32,000 nt of DNA from Crocosphaera subtropica ATCC 51142 (lineage in GTDB: Bacteria; Cyanobacteriota; Cyanobacteriia; Cyanobacteriales; Microcystaceae): contig NC_010546.1 in assembly GCF_000017845.1 (NCBI RefSeq), forward strand, positions 1,110,001-1,142,000. Direction: 5' to 3'. The notes below the pieces were generated by a model. It made no database searches. It had not been told where the DNA came from and saw only the letters and a list, made by a program, of their open reading frames with translations. This document shows, in pieces, positions 4,373 through 17,898 of the stretch. Numbering within the stretch: the stretch's first letter is position 1; every line of letters starts with the position of its first letter. The position numbers and the translations under genes were made by a program.

Positions 4373-4858
4373 TGTTTATTATAAGCTGTTGTGCATTGAA
4401 ATAGGGGATTTAAAATTTTAGTACAAAGGCTTAAAGGCTTTTTCCCTACTCCTTTTGCTCTACTTCGACTAAGCTCAGTGTCAATCTGCTCCCATGCAGT
4501 CCCAACTAGCAATTGAAATGATTAACAGCTTATCGCTGTTATTATTTTACCTTAATAATAAGAATATTATCATCAATTCTTCTCATAAGTTTACTCTTAA
4601 CTATTTCAAGAGAGAAATAATTATCCTTTTAAGGAGGATATTAACTAATCAAAAATATAAGATTTTCTGCACTTGAAAAATTTTATTAGTATATTTTAGG
4701 TTAAAATCAGGTAATATTTTGATTAACCCAAAATTAATTTGAAAAATATTAAAATAAACCATATTATCTTGATCTTTATTAAACATATAAGTTAAGATAT
4801 CCGACGTTTGAAACTCGAAAATCCAGCCCTAACCATTGATATTATTTTGGAGATTGTA

Positions 4859-6274
4859 ATGACAGTAAAATCAGGGTTACTGAACCTCTTTTTTGGTGTT
4901 TGTATTGCCACCAATCTAACTCAACTAGCCAGCGCACAAAATTACAAATTAACAAATTATGATTTTGATAATCGACCGAGTTTAGGACAAGTTCCTAACG
5001 AAAATGGTGACCTCACTGATATTCTCTTGGGTGGACTTTCTGGTTTATATTTTGAAGGATTTAATGGCAATAATTTACGTTTCGTGACTCATCCAGATCG
5101 TGGACCCCTACCGTTTCCTTTGCCTGATTTACAGCCTGAAATTGTTCGTTTTGAATTAGATGTAATCAGCAATAATATTACAATTGTAGACCGCATTAAT
5201 TTAGTTCAATCTGACGGAATCACCCCCTTATCCGTACTCCCTAATTTACAAGCAGGAGAACAAGGAACCGCTTACACAGATCAGTTCGGAGTGGATTTAT
5301 TAGGGAACTCAATTCCTAATGATCCTTTAGGTGCAGACTTAGAAGGAATTGTCATTGATCAACGTGATAATAGTTTTTGGATGGTAGACGAATATCGACC
5401 AGCCATCTATCATTTTAATTCCGTTGGAACCTTATTAAATCGTTTTGTTCCGATGGGAACAGCAGCAGCAGTTAATGAACCGTTAGGAACCTTTGGAACG
5501 GAAATTATTCCTTCAGTTTATGCTCAAAGAAGAGCCAATCGAGGCTTTGAAGCAGTGGCATTAAATCAAGATACTAATTTATTATATGCCTTCATTCAAA
5601 GTCCTATTGATAACCCTGATAATACAGGGGATACAACTTCAAGAAATAGTGATATTTTGCGTATCCTAGAACTGGATATTAGTAATCCCACTAACCCCCT
5701 AGTCAGTGGTCAATTTGTCTACTTATTAAATAACGATTTATATGACACAAATGTTGATAAAATTGGGGATGCTGTTTGGTTACAAGATAATCGTTTCGCT
5801 GTCATTCAAAGAGATTCTGATCTTGGTTTGAATGCTAGTAAATTGGTGTTTGAAATTGATTTATCTGATGCGACTAATTTAGAGACAGATGTTTTTAGTT
5901 TAGTGCCGAATAAAACCTTAGAAGAACATACTGCTGAAGAGTTAGGAACAGCAGGAATTATTCCTGTTGATAAAACCTTTTTATTTAATCTACCTGATTT
6001 GGGTTATTTAGCAGGAGATAAACCAGAAGGATTAGCTTTAATTCCTGGAAAACAGCCGACTTTTGTAGTCATTAATGATAACGATTATGGGTTATTAGAT
6101 GATGACATTCCTGGTGATGGCCGTCAAAATTTCAATCCTAATCCTATTCCTGTGGTAGTCGGTGTTATTACCCCAGTTCCTGAACCGTCTAATCATGCTT
6201 TATTAGGAACTATTTTCTTATTAGGAATTGGCTCAATATTTCGTCGTTACACTACTTTCGTTAAACGGGGTTAA
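4859..6274 (+). CDS. Secreted phytase-like/esterase-like repeat protein with a C-terminal PEP-CTERM sorting signal
   Basis: The ORF track starts at TTG 4808. ATG 4859 with GGAG upstream yields a clean signal peptide, MTVKSGLLNLFFGVCIATNLTQLASAQ. The C-terminus PVPEPSNHALLGTIFLLGIGSIFRRY is a VPEP motif followed by a TM helix and a basic tail, which defines PEP-CTERM. The body resembles the 'esterase-like activity of phytase' beta-propeller family (GADLEGIV..., RGFEAVAL, KPEGLALIP). Confidence 0.75.
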   Translation: MTVKSGLLNLFFGVCIATNLTQLASAQNYKLTNYDFDNRPSLGQVPNENGDLTDILLGGLSGLYFEGFNGNNLRFVTHPDRGPLPFPLPDLQPEIVRFELDVISNNITIVDRINLVQSDGITPLSVLPNLQAGEQGTAYTDQFGVDLLGNSIPNDPLGADLEGIVIDQRDNSFWMVDEYRPAIYHFNSVGTLLNRFVPMGTAAAVNEPLGTFGTEIIPSVYAQRRANRGFEAVALNQDTNLLYAFIQSPIDNPDNTGDTTSRNSDILRILELDISNPTNPLVSGQFVYLLNNDLYDTNVDKIGDAVWLQDNRFAVIQRDSDLGLNASKLVFEIDLSDATNLETDVFSLVPNKTLEEHTAEELGTAGIIPVDKTFLFNLPDLGYLAGDKPEGLALIPGKQPTFVVINDNDYGLLDDDIPGDGRQNFNPNPIPVVVGVITPVPEPSNHALLGTIFLLGIGSIFRRYTTFVKRG

Positions 6275-7694: not shown

Positions 7695-7940
7695 ATGGAT
7701 AAAGACACCCAATTTGCCTTATTAGTAATAGGATTACCCTTAGTTGGCTTACTGTATTGTGGCTTAATTATTGCCTTTTTAATGAATAATCCATTTGGTC
7801 GAGAACACCCTTTAATCACAGGATTTGTGGTGATGGTTGTTCCTTTTTCCACCGCAGCGACAATCTGGATTAAAGCCTCAGCAAAAGCCTATAAAGAACA
7901 TGAACTGAGAAACCACTCCACAGGCCATCAATTAAAATAA
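7695..7940 (+). CDS. Small predicted membrane protein (2 TM segments), hypothetical
   Basis: 81-aa ORF with an ATG start. It has two hydrophobic segments (FALLVIGLPLVGLLYCGLIIAFL and LITGFVVMVVPFSTAATIWI). It is co-directional with the trypco2-like gene and ends 27 nt before it. No obvious SD was seen and no family was recognised. Confidence 0.45.
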   Translation: MDKDTQFALLVIGLPLVGLLYCGLIIAFLMNNPFGREHPLITGFVVMVVPFSTAATIWIKASAKAYKEHELRNHSTGHQLK

Positions 7941-7967
7941 AGGCCAATCAATTATGAATAACTAACA

Positions 7968-8276
7968 ATGGAATTTGGAGACTCTAAACCCCAACAACTT
8001 CCGGTCAGCTTACCCGGTGGAACTTTAATCAAAGTGGAAGTCCAACAAACCGGAAGAGAAGATGTAGCGTTTGACATTAAACCCTTTAGCCAAGTTACCA
8101 AAGCCTTAGAAGAAATTACCGCAGCTTTAGCAGAAACTTTACAAAAGACTAAACCCGATAAAGCTTCTATTAAATTTGGGTTAGAATTAGGCATAGAAAA
8201 AGGAGAACTCATTGCCATCCTTGTCAAAGGATCGGGTAAAGCCAACTTAGAAGTCACCCTGGAATGGGGCAAATAA
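7968..8276 (+). CDS. Trypsin-co-occurring domain 2 (trypco2 / CU044_2847-like) small protein
   Basis: 102-aa ORF. The pattern is an N-terminal beta segment (GGTLIKVEV), a helix (VTKALEEITAALAETLQKTKP), KASIKFGLELGIEKGE, and a terminal GSGKANLEVTLEW. This matches my recollection of the roughly 100-aa family found next to trypsin-like peptidases. It ends 66 nt upstream of the protease-NACHT gene. The 109-aa antisense ORF at 7952-8281 was rejected. Confidence 0.6.
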   Translation: MEFGDSKPQQLPVSLPGGTLIKVEVQQTGREDVAFDIKPFSQVTKALEEITAALAETLQKTKPDKASIKFGLELGIEKGELIAILVKGSGKANLEVTLEWGK

Positions 8277-8342
8277 CTCAAGTTTTCTCAGTTCTACCCC
8301 GTTGTTGTCATCCCTAACGGAATCTTATAATGATGAAACAAG

Positions 8343-10916
8343 ATGGGTCAACCACTCGAAAGACTCTTACAACGTTGTGCTGTGAAAATCATTGTCCCTG
8401 GCCAAAGGGGTTGGGGAACAGGGTTTTTTGTCGCTCCTGGACAAATTTTAACTTGTTTCCATGTGATTAAAAATGCCCAAAAGGGACGGGTAACTATCAG
8501 TTGGGAAATTCAGGAAAAGGTTGCTGAAGCGACCATAGACCAATATGACGAAGGGTTAGACATTGCCCTTCTGACATTGACCCCTTGGGGTGACGACATT
8601 CCGTGTGTGGATCTCGATCGCACCTTTCAAGCAGACGATCGATTTTACATCTACGGTTATCCTGACGACTTTCCTGATGGGGCCTCGGTAACAGTCCAAT
8701 GCGAAGGCACCGCCCAAGATCAACAAACCCTAATTAAATTTAAAGCTGGACAAGTGCGGCCAGGATTAAGCGGTTCCCCAATTTTAAATCAACGCACAGG
8801 GAAAGTATGCGGTATGGTCAAATTTACCCGCGATCGCAGTTTTGATCTAGGGGGTGGGGCCATTTCGGTTGAAACCATTTTAACCACCTTTACCCACCTC
8901 ACCGAAGCACAACATCGTTATCATCAAAATAACCCTCAATGGCGATCGCTACTCCCCCAGTCTTCTAGTTCCCCTCACCTCACCCGTCAAGAATATCGTA
9001 ACCGTCAGGCCCTCATCAATAAAGTCAATTATTATTGGATAGAAGGGGTTCTCGAAACTTCCCTCCCTCATCATCAGTCCATTGCCTTAAATTTAGAAGA
9101 AAGACCCTTAGCCCTCAGTAGTCAGTCTAATCTAGTGGCTGAGTTTATTGATAACCCTGAGATCCCTTTATCTCCAGACACCACCGTTATGGATATCTTC
9201 GATCAATTGGGGGCTGGACGTACCCTTTTAATTTTAGGAGAACCCGGATCGGGGAAAACCATTACTCTGTTGCAGTTGGGCAAAGAATTAATTAGACGGG
9301 CCCAAGAAGATGCTCAACAGTTAATTCCCGTCGTCTTCAACCTCTCCTCTTGGGCCGATGAAAAATCACCCATAGATGAATGGATTATCAAAGAATTACA
9401 CAGTAACTATCAAGTCCCTGAAAAAATGGGACAAACTTGGGTACAACAAGAGCAACTGTTATTTTTATTAGATGGCCTCGATGAAATTTTCAGCAAAGAG
9501 TCCCAAGAAGCTTGCATCAAAGCCATCAACCAATTTCATCGAGACTTTGGTTCTCCAGAAATGGTGGTTTGTTGTCGAGATAACGATTATTTTGCTTTAT
9601 CTGAACGGTTAAACCTAGAAAGTGCGATTTATTTACGTTCTCTCAGTTTAGAACAAATTGACCACTATTTAAGTCGATTGGATAGTGAACTGTCGTCTCT
9701 ACGAACCATCATTAAACAGGATGCTGTCTTGCAGGAATTAGCCACATCGCCTTTAATGCTCAATATTATGGCGATCGCCTATCAAGGATTAGCCATTAAG
9801 GACGTATCAACTTCTGGTGTCATTGAAGACCAACGGCAACAAATTTTTAAGGCTTACATTCAACGAATGTTCAAGCGTCCTCGTAACAATCCCGGCAATT
9901 ATTCCCAACCAGAAACCATTAATAAATTAGCCTGGTTAGCACAACAAATGTCAAAATTTTCTCAAAGTATCTTTCTCATCGAGAGGATGCAACCTAGCTG
10001 GTTAGGTCAGAATAAACAACAATGTTTATATACAGTGGGAGTCCGTTTTGTCATCTTTTTGATCTGGAGTACAGTTCATATCAGTTTATTAGGATTTCAT
10101 CATAGTTTATTAGAAAGAATCCCCTATGATCCTACTCCCTTAGAAATGGTGAGTTATGCTTTGATTGCAGGCCCCATAGGAGCTATCCTTTATGCGTTAT
10201 TTGGTAGTTTTATTGATCAATATGTCCATCAATGGACTGGCTTAATTAACGGTTTATTTTTGGGGGTAATTTATGGATTAATTTTTGGTATTCTTTGGCA
10301 GACAATTCCTATGGGAATAGCTTATGGAGTTATCTATGGGTTAGTAGGTTGTTTAATTGATCGATCCATCAGCCACACCATAGACCCCGTAGAAACCTTT
10401 AAGTGGTCTTGGAAAAAATCAGGACTTTATTTGGCCATCGGATTAATTATTGCTATTAGTCTTTTTTTAGGAGGCACGACAGGGGGGATTCTTCAGAGTT
10501 TAATTTTTGGACTTATGTTCTGTTTTATTTTTGTTTTCACCAAAGCAGAAGATATCGATCAAACAACGATTGCTAATCAAGGAATTTGGAAATCAGCCAC
10601 TAATGCCACTAAAGTATTTTTAACCATTGGATTATTAACAACATTGCTTTTAACCCTTGTGGAGAATTTAACCTCTGGTTTAGTTAATGGTTTAATTTTA
10701 GGACTATTGGGTGCATTCTTAGGGGCGCAACTATCAGGAATAGTTTGTATTCAGCATTTTGTTTTACGGCTGATTTTATGGAAAAAAGGGAAAATTACCT
10801 GGAACTATGCTCGCTTTTTAAACTATGCTACAGCCCGCATTTTTCTGCAAAAAGTAGGCGGGGGTTATATCTTTATCCATCGGAGATTACGAGATCATTT
10901 TGCTCAACTTTCTTAA
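8343..10916 (+). CDS. Trypsin-like serine protease - NACHT (STAND) NTPase - multi-pass membrane fusion protein
   Basis: 857-aa ORF. Protease triad motifs: ILTCFHV (His40, nt 8460-8462), LDIALL (Asp73, nt 8559-8561), GLSGSPI (Ser143, nt 8769-8771). NACHT motifs: Walker A GEPGSGKT (aa 299-306, nt 9237-9260), Walker B LLFLLDGLDE (aa 372-381, nt 9456-9485), VVCCRDN, SPLMLNIMA. About 8 Gly-rich hydrophobic helices span aa 562-811 or so. The tail is ARFLNYATARIFLQKVGGGYIFIHRRLRDHFA. Confidence 0.85.
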   Translation: MGQPLERLLQRCAVKIIVPGQRGWGTGFFVAPGQILTCFHVIKNAQKGRVTISWEIQEKVAEATIDQYDEGLDIALLTLTPWGDDIPCVDLDRTFQADDRFYIYGYPDDFPDGASVTVQCEGTAQDQQTLIKFKAGQVRPGLSGSPILNQRTGKVCGMVKFTRDRSFDLGGGAISVETILTTFTHLTEAQHRYHQNNPQWRSLLPQSSSSPHLTRQEYRNRQALINKVNYYWIEGVLETSLPHHQSIALNLEERPLALSSQSNLVAEFIDNPEIPLSPDTTVMDIFDQLGAGRTLLILGEPGSGKTITLLQLGKELIRRAQEDAQQLIPVVFNLSSWADEKSPIDEWIIKELHSNYQVPEKMGQTWVQQEQLLFLLDGLDEIFSKESQEACIKAINQFHRDFGSPEMVVCCRDNDYFALSERLNLESAIYLRSLSLEQIDHYLSRLDSELSSLRTIIKQDAVLQELATSPLMLNIMAIAYQGLAIKDVSTSGVIEDQRQQIFKAYIQRMFKRPRNNPGNYSQPETINKLAWLAQQMSKFSQSIFLIERMQPSWLGQNKQQCLYTVGVRFVIFLIWSTVHISLLGFHHSLLERIPYDPTPLEMVSYALIAGPIGAILYALFGSFIDQYVHQWTGLINGLFLGVIYGLIFGILWQTIPMGIAYGVIYGLVGCLIDRSISHTIDPVETFKWSWKKSGLYLAIGLIIAISLFLGGTTGGILQSLIFGLMFCFIFVFTKAEDIDQTTIANQGIWKSATNATKVFLTIGLLTTLLLTLVENLTSGLVNGLILGLLGAFLGAQLSGIVCIQHFVLRLILWKKGKITWNYARFLNYATARIFLQKVGGGYIFIHRRLRDHFAQLS

Positions 10917-12264: not shown

Positions 12265-13392
12265 TTAAGAATCACTAATAATATTCCAATTTATCTTTTG
12301 TTTTAACTGATTAAAATGACTATAGTGGAGGACTTTTTCATATTGTAATCTACCGACAATAATTCCGGAAGCAATTTTCAAGCGATTAGCGAAGGCAGTA
12401 ATATCATATTCCCTTCCTGAAAAAGATAATAAAAATTCTTGCCATTCAGCAGGGGGAATAAGAAAATCAGCGGCAAACTGATTCGCTTCTTGTTCTTTTT
12501 TTTGTCTTTCTAATGGCTGTTCTTCAAATTCTTTTGGTTCAAAAGTTTCGATAAATATGTCACGCTTACCATGTAAAAGAATATGACCAGCTTCATGAAA
12601 AAAATTAAACCAGAAATGATCATTAGTTTTGTAACGTAAGCTGAGTTGAATTAAAGGTGTATGAGAATTTAACCAATAAGCTGCACCACCAACCCTAGTT
12701 TTTGGCAGTTGAGGAACTAAAACAAAAGTAACTCCAGTTTCAGTACATAATGATTGTATTTTGGATAGAAATATCTCAGGAGATTCTAGAGTTAATAATC
12801 TGATTTCTTGCAAAACTTCTTTAAATTGATAAGGGTCGTAATCAGCGCAGTTAATTTTAGCTGCTTCAATTTTTCCCTTCTGCAACCAAGCAATTAAAGC
12901 CCCATCGTCACTATCAAGGTTTTCAGATTTCCTAAAATCTACCGATAACCTTTTTTCCCAAACATCTCGTAAATTTTCAGGAGAAGCAACGGAAAAAAAA
13001 TCAAGAAGTTCTCGTAATTGTTCAACTTTATTATTAAAGTTCCTAATCCAGCCTAGTTTAATCATTGCTTGATAAGGGATCTTTTCTAACCATGCAACTT
13101 TTTCTTTAAGACGTTTATTTTCCTCCTGTCTGGCTAAATAATCTCGATAAAGCTGTTCTCTATTATTCCAAAAATTGGCTGGAATCTTAAGCACTAACTC
13201 CAACTGCAATGCTGTTTCTGGAGTAATAGCAGCTTTACCTTTAATAATTTCATTAATGGTTTTTTTAGGTCGTCCCATTCGTTCAGCTAGTTCCGATTGG
13301 GTCATTCCTTTTTCTTCTAGAATTTCTTCGATGGTTTCTCCAGGAGGGGAAACATAGTCAGGTTTGTATCTATTATCAATTAAATTAATCAT
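12265..13392 (-). CDS. HigA-type XRE helix-turn-helix antitoxin fused to an ImmA/IrrE-family (M78) zinc metallopeptidase domain
   Basis: The ORF track starts at TTG 13410. ATG 13392 is preferred because it overlaps the higB stop by 8 nt. Residue numbers follow the track ORF. The N-terminus PPGETIEEILEEKGMTQSELAERMGRPKKTINEIIKGKAAITPETALQLELVL...FW is HigA-like. The C-terminal part carries FFHEAGHILLH (HEXXH, aa 272-276) and EQEANQFAADFLIP, typical of ImmA/IrrE. Confidence 0.8.
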   Translation of the reverse strand: MINLIDNRYKPDYVSPPGETIEEILEEKGMTQSELAERMGRPKKTINEIIKGKAAITPETALQLELVLKIPANFWNNREQLYRDYLARQEENKRLKEKVAWLEKIPYQAMIKLGWIRNFNNKVEQLRELLDFFSVASPENLRDVWEKRLSVDFRKSENLDSDDGALIAWLQKGKIEAAKINCADYDPYQFKEVLQEIRLLTLESPEIFLSKIQSLCTETGVTFVLVPQLPKTRVGGAAYWLNSHTPLIQLSLRYKTNDHFWFNFFHEAGHILLHGKRDIFIETFEPKEFEEQPLERQKKEQEANQFAADFLIPPAEWQEFLLSFSGREYDITAFANRLKIASGIIVGRLQYEKVLHYSHFNQLKQKINWNIISDS

Positions 13393-13720
13393 GGGTATCG
13401 TCAACACCAATAATTTTAACGGCTGTTACTTGTGTCCAATCAAGTCCCCCATCGGGTTTTTTGGGGACAGGATTATTAGCAGGTTCAAAAATTAATCGAT
13501 AAGGATGGTCTAAGTCTAAAGATAATTGACCACGACGATTATGGGTTAACTCATGACAGCGTCCTGGAAGATTTCGCATATCTTCAAGGGTAGAAGCTGC
13601 GTTTAAGTCATCTAATCTTCGTCTAATGCGTTTAGCTCTGTCCTTACCTTGTTTTTTGATTAGAAGTTGTTGATTGTTGCATTGTTTTTCTAACTTGGCG
13701 TTTTCAAAGACTATATTCAT
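13385..13720 (-). CDS. higB: HigB-like toxin (plasmid maintenance system killer protein, RelE/ParE superfamily)
   Basis: 111-aa ORF. The pattern ...RIRRRLDDLNAASTLEDMRNLPGRCHELTHNRRGQLSLDLDHPYRLIFEP... matches the HigB/killer-protein family. The toxin-first order with an overlapping HTH gene downstream is the higBA arrangement. Confidence 0.7.
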   Translation of the reverse strand: MNIVFENAKLEKQCNNQQLLIKKQGKDRAKRIRRRLDDLNAASTLEDMRNLPGRCHELTHNRRGQLSLDLDHPYRLIFEPANNPVPKKPDGGLDWTQVTAVKIIGVDDTHD

Positions 13721-15105: not shown

Positions 15106-17898
15106 ATGCGCTGCTTAAACTGCCACCTGGATAACCTTCCCGAAACCACCCAACGCTGTCCCCATTGTGGGGCGCAAGTTCTCTCCTTGTTACAAGAAGT
15201 GTTACCCCAAGGCACCCAACTGCGATCGCATACATACTGTTTAGACGATGCTATGGGAAAGGGTAGTTTTGGCATTACCTATCGCGCCCATCATACCGCA
15301 TTAAAGAATCCTGTCGCCATTAAAGAATTTTATCCCGTTGAATATGTATCTCGAAATATTGAAACCAAACTATTAATTATTCCCGCTAAACATCGAGACG
15401 CATACCAAAGAAGTTTATATCGTTTTTTAGAAGAAGGGCAGATATTAGCCAAGTTAAATCATCCCAATGTGGTTAAAGTAAGGGACTTATTTGAAGAAAG
15501 AGATACTGCTTATATTGTCATGGACTTAGTACAGGGCAAAACCTTATTAAAAGAATTAGAAAATCAGCCCCAAAAAAAACTATCCCCTGACAGAATAGAA
15601 AATTTCATTGGACAATTAGTTCATGCCTTAACTGCCATTCACGAAGCCGGTATTTATCATCTGGATCTTAAACCAGAAAATATGATCTTAACTCCTGACG
15701 ATCAATTAATTTTAATTGATTTTGGAGCAGCCACTTTAGCTAGTGATGCTAAACGAAAAAGAACTCGTTCTTTTACCGAATGTTACGCAGCCCCGGAAAT
15801 CATGTCAGGGGGAGAAGTTGGACCAGAAAGTGATCTCTTTGAAGTAGGAATGATTCTCCATGAACTATTAACAGGAACCTTACCCCCACCAGCCATGAAG
15901 CGTGTTTTAGAAACCGATACCTGGCAACCTCAAGGGTTAACTCATCCCTGGGATATGTTAATCGTTGATGCCTTGAGAATTCAAAGAATCCATCGCAGTC
16001 GAACTGTCGCCCAATGGTGGGAATTACGAAGGCAAAAACAAGAAAATATCATTAGAATTGACCAAAAAAGTCTCGAAAACTTACAAGGAAAATTTATATT
16101 ACCTTTATTACAACAGCAAGGAATGACTCAGAAATTGGGGCGAGGTTGTATTAGAAAAGTGATTCCTGTTAATCAAAATCAGGTTTTAGTTTTAGAAGCA
16201 GCAGGAGCCTCCTTATTAGATTTTAATACTAAAATTGCTCACTGGGAAATTGACTGTCCCACGTCCTGGGGAGCCGTTAGTGAGAATAAAAACATATTAG
16301 CCTTAGTGTGGCAACAAAACATCTATTTATGGGATTTGAATCAGGGAAAGTTATTAAGACAATTACAAGGTCATTCCAAGAAAATAACGGATCTCGCATT
16401 TAACAAAGATGGCTCTTTATTACTGTCAGGAAGTCTCGATGAAACTTTAATTATCTGGGAAATTCAAACAGGAAGAAAACGTCATGAATTATCTGAACCA
16501 ATGGGACGCATAACCGCCGTTGCTTTCAGTGAAGATAATCAATTTATTGCTTCTGGTTCCCATACAGGAATCGTGAGAATTTGGGGAGCCATATCTGGTC
16601 AAGAATGGCGGTGTTTAGAAGGCCATCAAATGGCAGTAGAAAGCTTAATTTTTAGCTCAGATAGTAAACTCTTAGCCTCAGCAGGACGGGATAAAACCAT
16701 TCGTTTATGGGACGTTACGTCAGGAAAATTTCAACAAGTCTTAGAAGGTCATCAGGACTGGGTCAAAGCATTGAGTTTTGATAAAAATGCCGATTATTTA
16801 GCTTCTGCATCGGCCATTAATGATAAAACTATTCGTATTTGGTCTATTGACCAACGACAACAAACCCAACAACTACAAGGCCATCGTAACAGTATTCAAG
16901 CGATCGCTTTTTGTGCTGATGATCGTTATTTGATCTCAGCAGCATCTGACAACACTATCCGTCTCTGGGACCGAGACACCGGAAAAGCGATCAAACAACT
17001 CAAACAACACACCAATTGGGTGTATAGTGTAGCCTGTAGTGCGGACGGTCGTTGGGTAGCTATTGGATACAATGACTGGACTGTGCGCCTTTGGGATATC
17101 ATTGAACAACGGGAAGTTAATTGTCTCGAAGGTCATGAAAGTGCTGTTTCTAGTGTGGCCTTTTGTCCTGATAGTCAACACCTCATCTCTGGGAGTTGGG
17201 ATGGAACTCTCAGAGTCTGGGATATTCTCACAGGAAAATGTAAACGCATTTTACAAGGTCATGAAAACTGGGTCAGTTGTGTTGCAGTGAGTCCTAACGG
17301 TCAATGGGTGGCCTCTGGGAGTTGGGATAAAACTGTTTGTCTTTGGGAAATTACTAATAATTGGCCTCATTTTAAAGGGAGTAAACCCACTCGCATTTTA
17401 CAAGGCCACTTAGAAGATATTGAAGGGGTTGCTTTTAGTCCTGATAGTCAATTAATGGCTAGTTCTAGTAATGATAAAACGATTAGAATTTGGGAAGTTG
17501 CATCCGGTCAACAAGTGCAACAATTAGAAGGTCATAAATATAGTGTTGACGATGTGGTTTTTAGTCCCGATGGTCAATTTATTGCTTCCGTGAGTCGAGA
17601 TAAAACGGTGAGAGTTTGGCACGTTATTTCGGGTAAAGAAATTCATCGCTTTCAAGGTCATACCCATTATGTGAAATGTGTAGCATTTAGTTTAGACGGT
17701 CGTTATTTAGTTTCTGGGGGAAAAGATAAAATGATTGCTATTTGGGATCTCATTTCAGGAGAATTGAGTCAATTAATTCAAGGTCATACGAATGATATTA
17801 ATAGCATTGCTTTTACTGGAGATGGTTCCTTTTTAGTCTCTGGGGATAATGATGGCGTGGTGAGGTTATGGAAATTACAGTTAGGCAGTGAAAGTTAG
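15106..17898 (+). CDS. Zinc-ribbon - Ser/Thr protein kinase - WD40 repeat (about 13-14 blades) protein
   Basis: 930-aa ORF. The N-terminal CxxC...CxxC is MRCLNCH...RCPHCG. Hanks kinase motifs: GKGSFG, VAIKEF, HLDLKPENM, IDFGAA, YAAPEI. About 13-14 WD repeats follow, each with a GH...(W[DEH]) periodicity (for example LQGHSKKITDLAF...IWEIQTG), enough for two 7-bladed propellers. Confidence 0.9.
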   Translation: MRCLNCHLDNLPETTQRCPHCGAQVLSLLQEVLPQGTQLRSHTYCLDDAMGKGSFGITYRAHHTALKNPVAIKEFYPVEYVSRNIETKLLIIPAKHRDAYQRSLYRFLEEGQILAKLNHPNVVKVRDLFEERDTAYIVMDLVQGKTLLKELENQPQKKLSPDRIENFIGQLVHALTAIHEAGIYHLDLKPENMILTPDDQLILIDFGAATLASDAKRKRTRSFTECYAAPEIMSGGEVGPESDLFEVGMILHELLTGTLPPPAMKRVLETDTWQPQGLTHPWDMLIVDALRIQRIHRSRTVAQWWELRRQKQENIIRIDQKSLENLQGKFILPLLQQQGMTQKLGRGCIRKVIPVNQNQVLVLEAAGASLLDFNTKIAHWEIDCPTSWGAVSENKNILALVWQQNIYLWDLNQGKLLRQLQGHSKKITDLAFNKDGSLLLSGSLDETLIIWEIQTGRKRHELSEPMGRITAVAFSEDNQFIASGSHTGIVRIWGAISGQEWRCLEGHQMAVESLIFSSDSKLLASAGRDKTIRLWDVTSGKFQQVLEGHQDWVKALSFDKNADYLASASAINDKTIRIWSIDQRQQTQQLQGHRNSIQAIAFCADDRYLISAASDNTIRLWDRDTGKAIKQLKQHTNWVYSVACSADGRWVAIGYNDWTVRLWDIIEQREVNCLEGHESAVSSVAFCPDSQHLISGSWDGTLRVWDILTGKCKRILQGHENWVSCVAVSPNGQWVASGSWDKTVCLWEITNNWPHFKGSKPTRILQGHLEDIEGVAFSPDSQLMASSSNDKTIRIWEVASGQQVQQLEGHKYSVDDVVFSPDGQFIASVSRDKTVRVWHVISGKEIHRFQGHTHYVKCVAFSLDGRYLVSGGKDKMIAIWDLISGELSQLIQGHTNDINSIAFTGDGSFLVSGDNDGVVRLWKLQLGSES

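Follow-up and report, generated by a model that had tools for sequence, protein, structure and literature searches.

A Trypco1 gene and a trypsin-NACHT gene with a transmembrane insert in Crocosphaera subtropica ATCC 51142: a candidate Pepco-class conflict module

Gene pair and feature coordinates

A 32,000-nucleotide (nt) stretch of the genome of Crocosphaera subtropica ATCC 51142 (formerly Cyanothece 51142), referred to here as the window, contains a pair of genes encoding a 102-amino-acid (aa) protein of the Trypco1 family and an 857-aa protein in which a trypsin-like protease is followed by a NACHT domain and a block of transmembrane (TM) helices. The pair, its domains and the features around it are listed in Table 1, where positions are counted from the first nucleotide of the window. 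The arrangement agrees with the initial annotation of this DNA, made from the letters alone: by their coordinates in the list of open reading frames (ORFs), the genes are co-directional and separated by 66 nt. The analysis below leads to the proposal that they probably act together as a protease-effector conflict module.

Table 1. Coordinates of the gene pair, of the domains of the large protein and of other features in the window
Feature	Position (nt)	Strand	Evidence
Trypco1 (Pepco-class) small protein, 102 aa	7968..8276	+	ORF, PF19493 match, 100% identity to cce_1123
Trypsin-NACHT-TM large protein, 857 aa	8343-10916	+	ORF
S1C (HtrA/DegS/MarP-like) serine protease domain, ~aa 1-196, triad H40/D73/S143	8343..8930	+	Trypsin_2, Foldseek, triad conservation
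N-terminal conserved helical linker and NACHT core (nucleotide-binding domain, helical domain 1, putative first winged-helix half), ~aa 210-556	8970..10010	+	PF05729, Foldseek, invariant residues
Eight-helix TM block within the NACHT module, aa 557-815, N-in/C-in	10011..10787	+	Hydropathy, model helices, loop charges
Conserved cytoplasmic tail, aa 816-857 (helix, β-hairpin, helix; ends GGGYIFIHRRLRDHFA)	10788..10916	+	Conservation, model secondary structure
81-aa protein, two TM helices, 27 nt upstream of Trypco1	7695..7940	+	ORF, conservation in Crocosphaera-clade loci
HigB-like toxin gene (111 aa) overlapping a 381-aa HTH_3/Peptidase_M78 (ImmA-like) gene	12265-13720	-	Toxin-antitoxin-like pair
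930-aa protein, N-terminal Ser/Thr kinase domain, then ~12 WD40 repeats	15106-17898	+	

Protease and NACHT domains of the large protein

The N-terminal domain of the 857-aa protein carries a serine protease triad, with H40 in LTCFHV, D73 in DIALL and S143 in GLSGSP. Trypsin_2 was matched at residues 25-158 (E 5e-17, Pfam), and Foldseek searches of the N-terminus against the PDB returned DegS, HtrA and Rv3671c (MarP) with target-normalized template modeling scores of ~0.7. The NACHT motifs lie at 299 (GEPGSGKT, including K305), 372 (LLFLLDGLDE), 408 (VVCCR) and 469 (SPLMLN), the first three agreeing with the Walker A pattern GxxGxGKT, the Walker B pattern hhhhDGhDE and the conserved Arg that follows strand 4; PF05729 was matched at 293-445 (E 5e-12, 46.3 bits, cut-off 26.7), and the central part returned NOD2, NLRC4 and NLRP3 from the PDB with Foldseek. 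An AlphaFold2 model of the protein, built on a 48-sequence alignment, had a predicted local distance difference test score (pLDDT) of 82.5 and a predicted template modeling score (pTM) of 0.72. The intact S1 triad and all four motifs of a canonical NACHT core were found as first annotated, and profile searches placed the Trypsin_2 and NACHT domains, as well as the Trypco-family domain of the small protein (a Trypco1, see below), above their Pfam cut-offs.

Conservation of the triad in orthologues, on which the initial annotation had made its proposal depend, was found in 22-23 of 24 trypsin-bearing relatives, while K305, T306, D377, D380, E381, R412 and P470 were invariant in 48 of 48 relatives. 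The NACHT-TM part, referred to here as the chassis (~75% of the query), was present at 40-52% identity in more than 3000 proteins, mostly cyanobacterial. With this number of homologues, the retained triad and the invariant Walker A and B residues, the protein is not a product of chance. It is a NACHT-clade STAND NTPase with an HtrA-like S1C protease head. When defense-system models (PADLOC and NCBIfam) were searched, matches were limited to the level of domains (Avs1b protease, RT-Protease_XI, LmuA, PDC-S60 and EruA) and all fell far below the full-length cut-offs.

Identity and properties of the small protein

The 102-aa protein matched Trypco1 (PF19493) in Pfam with E 3e-17 and 63.3 bits (cut-off 24.6), its residues 15-101 aligning to profile positions 3-97 of 98, and the NCBIfam CU044_2847 family with E 6e-20 and 71.7 bits (cut-off 23). 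There was no match to Trypco2 (PF19631) in a Pfam search up to E 1. The label "trypco2-like" in the initial annotation was therefore replaced, and a Trypco2 identity was ruled out on the two family matches and the absent PF19631 match.

The secondary structure predicted from a monomer model is ββ-α-βββ. The helix at 41-61 lies inside the chain rather than at its N-terminus. It is amphipathic (hydrophobic moment 0.44, z 3.0 against shuffles), and hydrophobic and polar residues alternate in strands 65-77 (z 3.2) and 93-99 (z 2.6); judged from the sequence, these are features that a membrane-active barrel would be expected to have. A conserved I/V96 sits within the last predicted strand. After the conserved EW the protein continues for 2 residues, and for 2-14 residues (median 6) in 79 relatives. 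The linker G29-R-E-D-V33, which joins the N-terminal β-hairpin to the amphipathic helix, is predicted to be disordered (pLDDT <50), with G29 and V33 at least 90% conserved, and it is, speculatively, a candidate cleavage region.

Two further observations concern this part of the window. An antisense ORF of 109 aa (7952-8281, - strand) covers the whole Trypco1 gene and recurs at locus L005; most likely it only mirrors the Trypco1 frame and is no gene. The G+C content of window positions 8001-9000, comprising Trypco1 and the protease region, is 0.45, against 0.32-0.36 in the flanks, which could hint at a foreign origin or may simply reflect coding composition.

Coupling of Trypco1 to trypsin-headed proteins

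Using tblastn, Trypco1 was found directly upstream of the trypsin-NACHT-TM gene in seven of seven lineages, in which the large protein was 36-94% identical to that of the window. The closest genome-contig relative of the large protein among the matches listed was from "Unicellular cyanobacterium SU3" (94% identity). Chassis proteins bear trypsin, TIR, protein kinase, caspase/CHAT, receiver or HAD plus TIR domains at the N-terminus, or no head, and tblastn found no Trypco1 at the TIR-headed locus of Rippkaea PCC 8801 or at one caspase-headed locus, where a different, 127-aa gene lies upstream.

A metagenome scan yielded 331 Trypco1 relatives, the best 80 loci of which were analyzed with our own hidden Markov models; 68 of these had enough downstream sequence. 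A trypsin domain begins 17-45 nt downstream of Trypco1 in 61 of the 68, and in two others the trypsin gene is upstream. The Trypco1-associated trypsin is fused to NACHT-TM (5 loci), NACHT-HEAT, NACHT-pentapeptide, NB-ARC-TPR, nSTAND1-pentapeptide or WD40 partners. Trypco1 travels with the trypsin head, not with the NACHT-TM chassis.

These counts (seven of seven lineages, 61-63 of 68 metagenome loci) answer the question of synteny that the initial annotation had left to a comparison of genomes, and the conserved, co-directional module lends support to its proposal of an NLR-like conflict system with a protease effector. The assignment to conflict systems follows from two patterns, a constant effector cassette joined to many STAND sensors and a constant chassis joined to many effectors. 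Prokaryotic conflict systems are known to recombine effectors and sensors in this way (Kaur et al., 2020; Kibby et al., 2022; Evans et al., 2025).

The same two patterns bear on a different explanation, in which the pair is a housekeeping device for membrane stress or protein quality control, its HtrA-like protease being switched on by the membrane NTPase upon damage to the envelope or thylakoid, with no role in conflict. The protease fold is of the HtrA/DegS/MarP type, found in enzymes of envelope stress; the pair lies between housekeeping genes (an aminotransferase gene and pyrD) in an order that is syntenic in related Crocosphaera-clade genomes; and no Trypco1 relatives were found on the viral contigs searched, so that the gene appears to be cellular. 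However, the protease is cytoplasmic and has no PDZ domains, the same chassis bears TIR, caspase/CHAT and kinase heads, and many NLR-type sensors occur in fusion with the Trypco1-trypsin cassette. Because such swapping of heads and sensors is a signature of conflict systems, we consider a housekeeping role very unlikely.

The loci with other heads have neighborhoods of their own. In Rippkaea orientalis PCC 8801 (L013:1513-3892), the gene for the TIR-headed NACHT-TM protein adjoins AAA_15/AAA_21 ATPase, DUF4276 and cytidine/dCMP deaminase genes, in what looks like a small defense-type cluster. The 127-aa gene (L014:2437-2820) upstream of the caspase-headed NACHT-TM protein P0115 has no Pfam match and may be a caspase-specific counterpart of Trypco1.

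Membrane block and C-terminal tail

Hydropathy placed ~8 TM helices at residues 562-804 and none in 1-560, and the AlphaFold2 model has helices at 557-590, 599-627, 632-652, 655-677, 697-710, 716-729, 746-773 and 776-814. Both accord with the eight or so helices, and the lack of a signal peptide, that were first annotated. Since there is no TM helix before 560, and hence no signal peptide, the protease and NTPase are cytoplasmic. Lysine and arginine residues number 2/4/2/5 in the cytoplasmic loops versus 1/0/0/0 in those outside, and an even number of helices with positive charges inside puts both soluble halves in the cytoplasm (N-in/C-in). A periplasmic HtrA-type role was rejected on the missing signal peptide, the missing PDZ domain and the N-in topology.

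The initial annotation had described the TM block as C-terminal and as standing where repeat sensors normally sit. Both points need revision. A soluble tail of ~50 residues (805-857) comes after TM8 and is among the best-conserved parts of the family, with H805, R809, F825, L826, G839 and F844 invariant and H846 present in 47 of 48 sequences; its model secondary structure at 822-854 is helix, β-hairpin, helix. When the TM block alone was used as query in an exhaustive search, 339 cluster representatives were found to share it, and the distance from the block to the C-terminus is usually ~45 residues. P0090 shows the same arrangement up to residue 877, after which come TPR repeats over ~360 residues, and Pfam scans of sampled TM-block proteins gave CHAT-NACHT-TM and kinase-TPR-NACHT-TM architectures and three proteins with WD40 propellers after the block. 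As relatives carry such repeats downstream of both block and tail, the block is no replacement for a repeat sensor.

The winged-helix region controls the nucleotide lock in NLRs (NLRC4, NOD2, NLRP3). The motif YIFIHRRLRDHF at 842-853 of the tail, around His846, resembles the NLR winged-helix motif FxHxxxQE[FY], which comes after helical domain 1 and whose His contacts the bound nucleotide. That the TM block is an insertion within the NACHT winged-helix domain, and the tail its second half with His846 as sensor residue, is well supported though not proven. A splice from which the TM block had been deleted, searched alone and as a 15-sequence profile against PDB sequences, gave P-loop-level matches only, in a test of low sensitivity. 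Insertion of TM regions into NACHT is described by Kibby et al. (2022), who predict intramembrane or periplasmic sensing for this TM-type class.

We infer that the TM insert is the sensor. In a variant of this explanation the block serves only as an anchor, holding the protease together with its Pepco substrate at the target membrane, and what sets off the response is a ligand or protein of the cytoplasm that binds to the NACHT, to the N-terminal helical region or to the cytoplasmic loops. The very short outward-facing loops (0-16 residues) would fit an anchor, as would the fact that conservation outside the helices is highest at cytoplasmic residues (WSW, and the invariant N745-Q746 in NQGIW); moreover, relatives with the same insert also bear WD40 or TPR sensors, so that the TM block need not be the sensor there. 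The 857-aa protein, however, has no other candidate sensor domain, an insert in the winged-helix region is in a good position for passing on a membrane signal, and the prediction of Kibby et al. cited above is for sensing in or beyond the membrane. An anchor alone is therefore possible, if somewhat unlikely.

Two kinds of relatives differ from the protein of the window beyond the TM block. A trypsin-NACHT-TM subfamily (P0041-type, L011:4938-7937; also P0036 and P0045-P0054) continues beyond the conserved tail with a ninth TM helix and a signal-peptidase-like Peptidase_S26 domain; this domain would face outward, and a Peptidase_S8 gene is directly downstream. P0334 (458 aa, possibly N-terminally truncated) has TPR repeats and a ClpS adaptor domain downstream of its TM block.

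The tested Pepco system

According to the initial annotation, the trypsin-co-occurring families had not been tested experimentally and the present combination was functionally undescribed. Both statements are superseded by Evans et al. (2025; bioRxiv 10.1101/2025.11.14.688446), in which Trypco1 and Trypco2 are jointly named Pepco, the pair SsPepco and SsAvs4 of Streptomyces subrutilus is tested, and the sensors listed as fusion partners of Pepco-associated proteases include transmembrane STAND ATPases. In that system, sensing of the portal by SsAvs4 leads to toxicity that requires Pepco and the catalytic Ser of the protease, and deletion of Pepco abolishes it. SsPepco is a pre-assembled, protease-activated toxin that forms β-barrels of 9-10 subunits resistant to sodium dodecyl sulfate (SDS). 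The protease cuts a 2-kDa C-terminal tail off SsPepco after Ile97, SsPepco truncated to end precisely with Ile97 is lethal, and toxicity requires an N-terminal amphipathic helix (Evans et al., 2025). The SsPepco sequence, taken from the supplement of that paper, matched Trypco2 (PF19631) with E 5e-18.

Proposed mechanism

The proposal builds on what is established here (the domain identities, the conserved catalytic residues, the topology, the strict coupling of Trypco1 to trypsin and the modular swapping of both halves) and draws on the sister family Trypco2, the only one for which it is established that a β-barrel oligomer forms, that the partner protease cleaves the effector and that toxicity depends on this cleavage. 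The pair is probably a two-gene Pepco-class protease-effector conflict module gated by a membrane-embedded NACHT switch, in which cleavage of Trypco1 would result in membrane damage and cell death or arrest. At rest, the NACHT would be locked and the protease inactive. The lock would be released by a trigger, most plausibly one that arises during an infection by phage or another invasion and is perceived within or at the membrane or by the insert's cytoplasmic loops; nucleoside triphosphate-dependent oligomerization of the NACHT would then bring the protease domains together and activate them by proximity. The activated protease would cut the co-encoded Trypco1, and the cut Trypco1 would form a membrane-permeabilizing assembly by which the cell is killed or arrested (abortive infection). 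Trypco1 would in this respect act like Trypco2, by analogy with the tested pair, and antiphage defense would be the biological role. The small protein had been annotated as a possible inhibitor, adaptor or pro-toxin substrate. Most plausibly it is the pro-toxin substrate of the protease, and the inhibitor and adaptor are retained only within the alternative given below.

A more specific form of the proposal combines two steps and appears improbable as a whole. In it, the eight-helix insert would make the NACHT a direct sensor of membrane state (integrity, potential, lipid packing or an inserted phage protein), with helix movement passed to the nucleotide lock at His846, and Trypco1 would represent a latent effector of a separate kind, switched on when its N-terminal β-hairpin is removed at the G29-R-E-D-V33 linker, not by C-terminal trimming as in Trypco2. 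The 81-aa two-TM protein encoded upstream could also belong to the system as its third part, with a role in immunity or docking, for instance.

Several results weigh against the proposed module. Trypco1 and Trypco2 could not be linked significantly (hhalign probability 1%, E 0.054; profile-sequence comparison likewise), although both alignments pair GSGKANLEV with GNGKVNVEV, and the protease of the large protein aligns with that of SsAvs4 only around the His motif. The 2-residue tail of Trypco1 (2-14 in relatives) compares with 32-63 residues after the last strand in Trypco2; as Trypco1 is almost without a C-terminal tail, its cleavage site must differ, and the C-terminal switch demonstrated in SsPepco has no counterpart in it. 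The monomer model of Trypco1 is of low confidence (pLDDT 56.5) and a Foldseek search of the PDB with it returned nothing below E = 1, so that the β-barrel fold is not supported by the model. Nor is the partner always maintained: in two lineages (L007:4620-4917 with L008, and L011:4699-4917 with L012), a stop immediately ahead of the conserved EDVAFD motif interrupts the reading frame of Trypco1, so that the N-terminal ~30 residues are lost or frameshifted, with the downstream trypsin-NACHT-TM gene intact, and each break is present in two independent assemblies. PADLOC gave no full-length defense-system match for the pair, and in the literature surveyed no published trigger was found for a TM-type NACHT. 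Finally, the remainder of the window holds mostly housekeeping or signaling genes and no obvious defense island, the only defense-like neighbor of the pair being the HigBA-like pair 1.3 kb away.

Some of these results would fit a Trypco1 that is no toxin but regulates the protease as its inhibitor, chaperone or adaptor, with host or phage proteins as the lethal or signaling targets of the activated protease. The missing link to Trypco2, the lack of a cleavable tail and the lack of model support for a barrel all point this way, and the broken frames beside intact protease-NACHT genes suggest that the large protein can persist alone. Against a regulator stand the coupling, which is strict and specific to trypsin-headed variants, and the amphipathic helix and strands, which resemble those of membrane-active proteins. 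In addition, Evans et al. (2025) count Trypco1 and Trypco2 as one Pepco class, and loss of Pepco abolished toxicity in the system tested. We regard the regulator as doubtful and retain the pro-toxin substrate as the preferred role of Trypco1.

Neighboring genes

The Crocosphaera-clade loci L006 and L005 encode the 81-aa two-TM protein at 86-97% identity, and its gene still adjoins Trypco1 there, in L006 despite a histidine-kinase gene inserted upstream. The protein had no significant family match in Pfam, NCBIfam and PADLOC scans (best DUF6684, E 0.016), and its gene was not found at the more distant Trypco1 loci compared. It may be a clade-specific third component of the operon. Elsewhere in the window, a phytase-like secreted protein is encoded at 4808-6274 (+), and its C-terminus (…PVPEPSNHALLGTIFLLGIGSIFRRY) resembles a PEP-CTERM sorting signal. 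A literature search on the locus tags cce_1123 and cce_1124 found no papers.

Comparison with known systems

Catalogues have included the association of Trypco1, trypsin and STAND proteins since 2020, descriptions of TM-inserted NACHTs as a class date from 2022, and experiments on the sister effector family from 2025. With the class catalogued and the sister family tested, the value of the present locus is incremental and mechanistic, and it is no discovery of a new kind of system. C. subtropica is a genetically studied model cyanobacterium in which sensing by a membrane-inserted NACHT, and activation of a Trypco1 without the tail switch of Trypco2, could be addressed.

The nearest system with experiments is SsPepco-SsAvs4, which has the same layout: a small gene directly precedes the one for a STAND protein that begins with a trypsin-like serine protease. 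The effectors differ in that Trypco1 here is ββ-α-βββ, whereas SsPepco is α-ββββ with a tail of at least 32 residues that contains the Ile97 site, and the sensors differ in that a portal-binding Avs4 takes the place of the TM-inserted NACHT. For the large protein, the nearest class is the "TM regions" NACHT class of Kibby et al. (2022, 2023; also Kaur et al., 2020, 2021), which the eight TM helices between NACHT core and conserved tail fit; the available part of the Kibby et al. description is computational and gives no trigger, phenotype or Trypco1 partner.

As originally defined (Kaur, Burroughs, Iyer and Aravind, 2020; eLife 9:e52696), the Trypco1 gene adjoins a trypsin-like peptidase, and the same neighbors occur in the vWA-MoxR (VMAP) ternary systems. 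Here the switch is instead a NACHT fused to the protease, and membership in a VMAP ternary system was rejected, as no vWA or MoxR genes were present among the scanned ORFs of the window. Avs1-4 (AVAST) proteins likewise carry an N-terminal protease effector on a STAND NTPase, and residues 10-107 weakly matched Avs1b models (24-33 bits, family cut-off 1500). The NTPase of the window, in contrast, is NACHT-clade and membrane-embedded and has no soluble C-terminal sensor; with domain-level matches only, membership in Avs1-4 or another PADLOC-listed system was rejected.

The inflammasome-caspase-gasdermin axis of animal NLRs is comparable by analogy only: there, NACHT oligomerization leads to a proximity-activated protease that cuts a latent pore-former. 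The proteases (S1 versus caspase) and the effectors are unrelated, and here the protease is fused to the NLR, which is itself a membrane protein. If the proposed mechanism holds, the pair would be a compact bacterial counterpart of the logic of pyroptosis (NLR, protease, pore-former) in which the NLR resides in the membrane.

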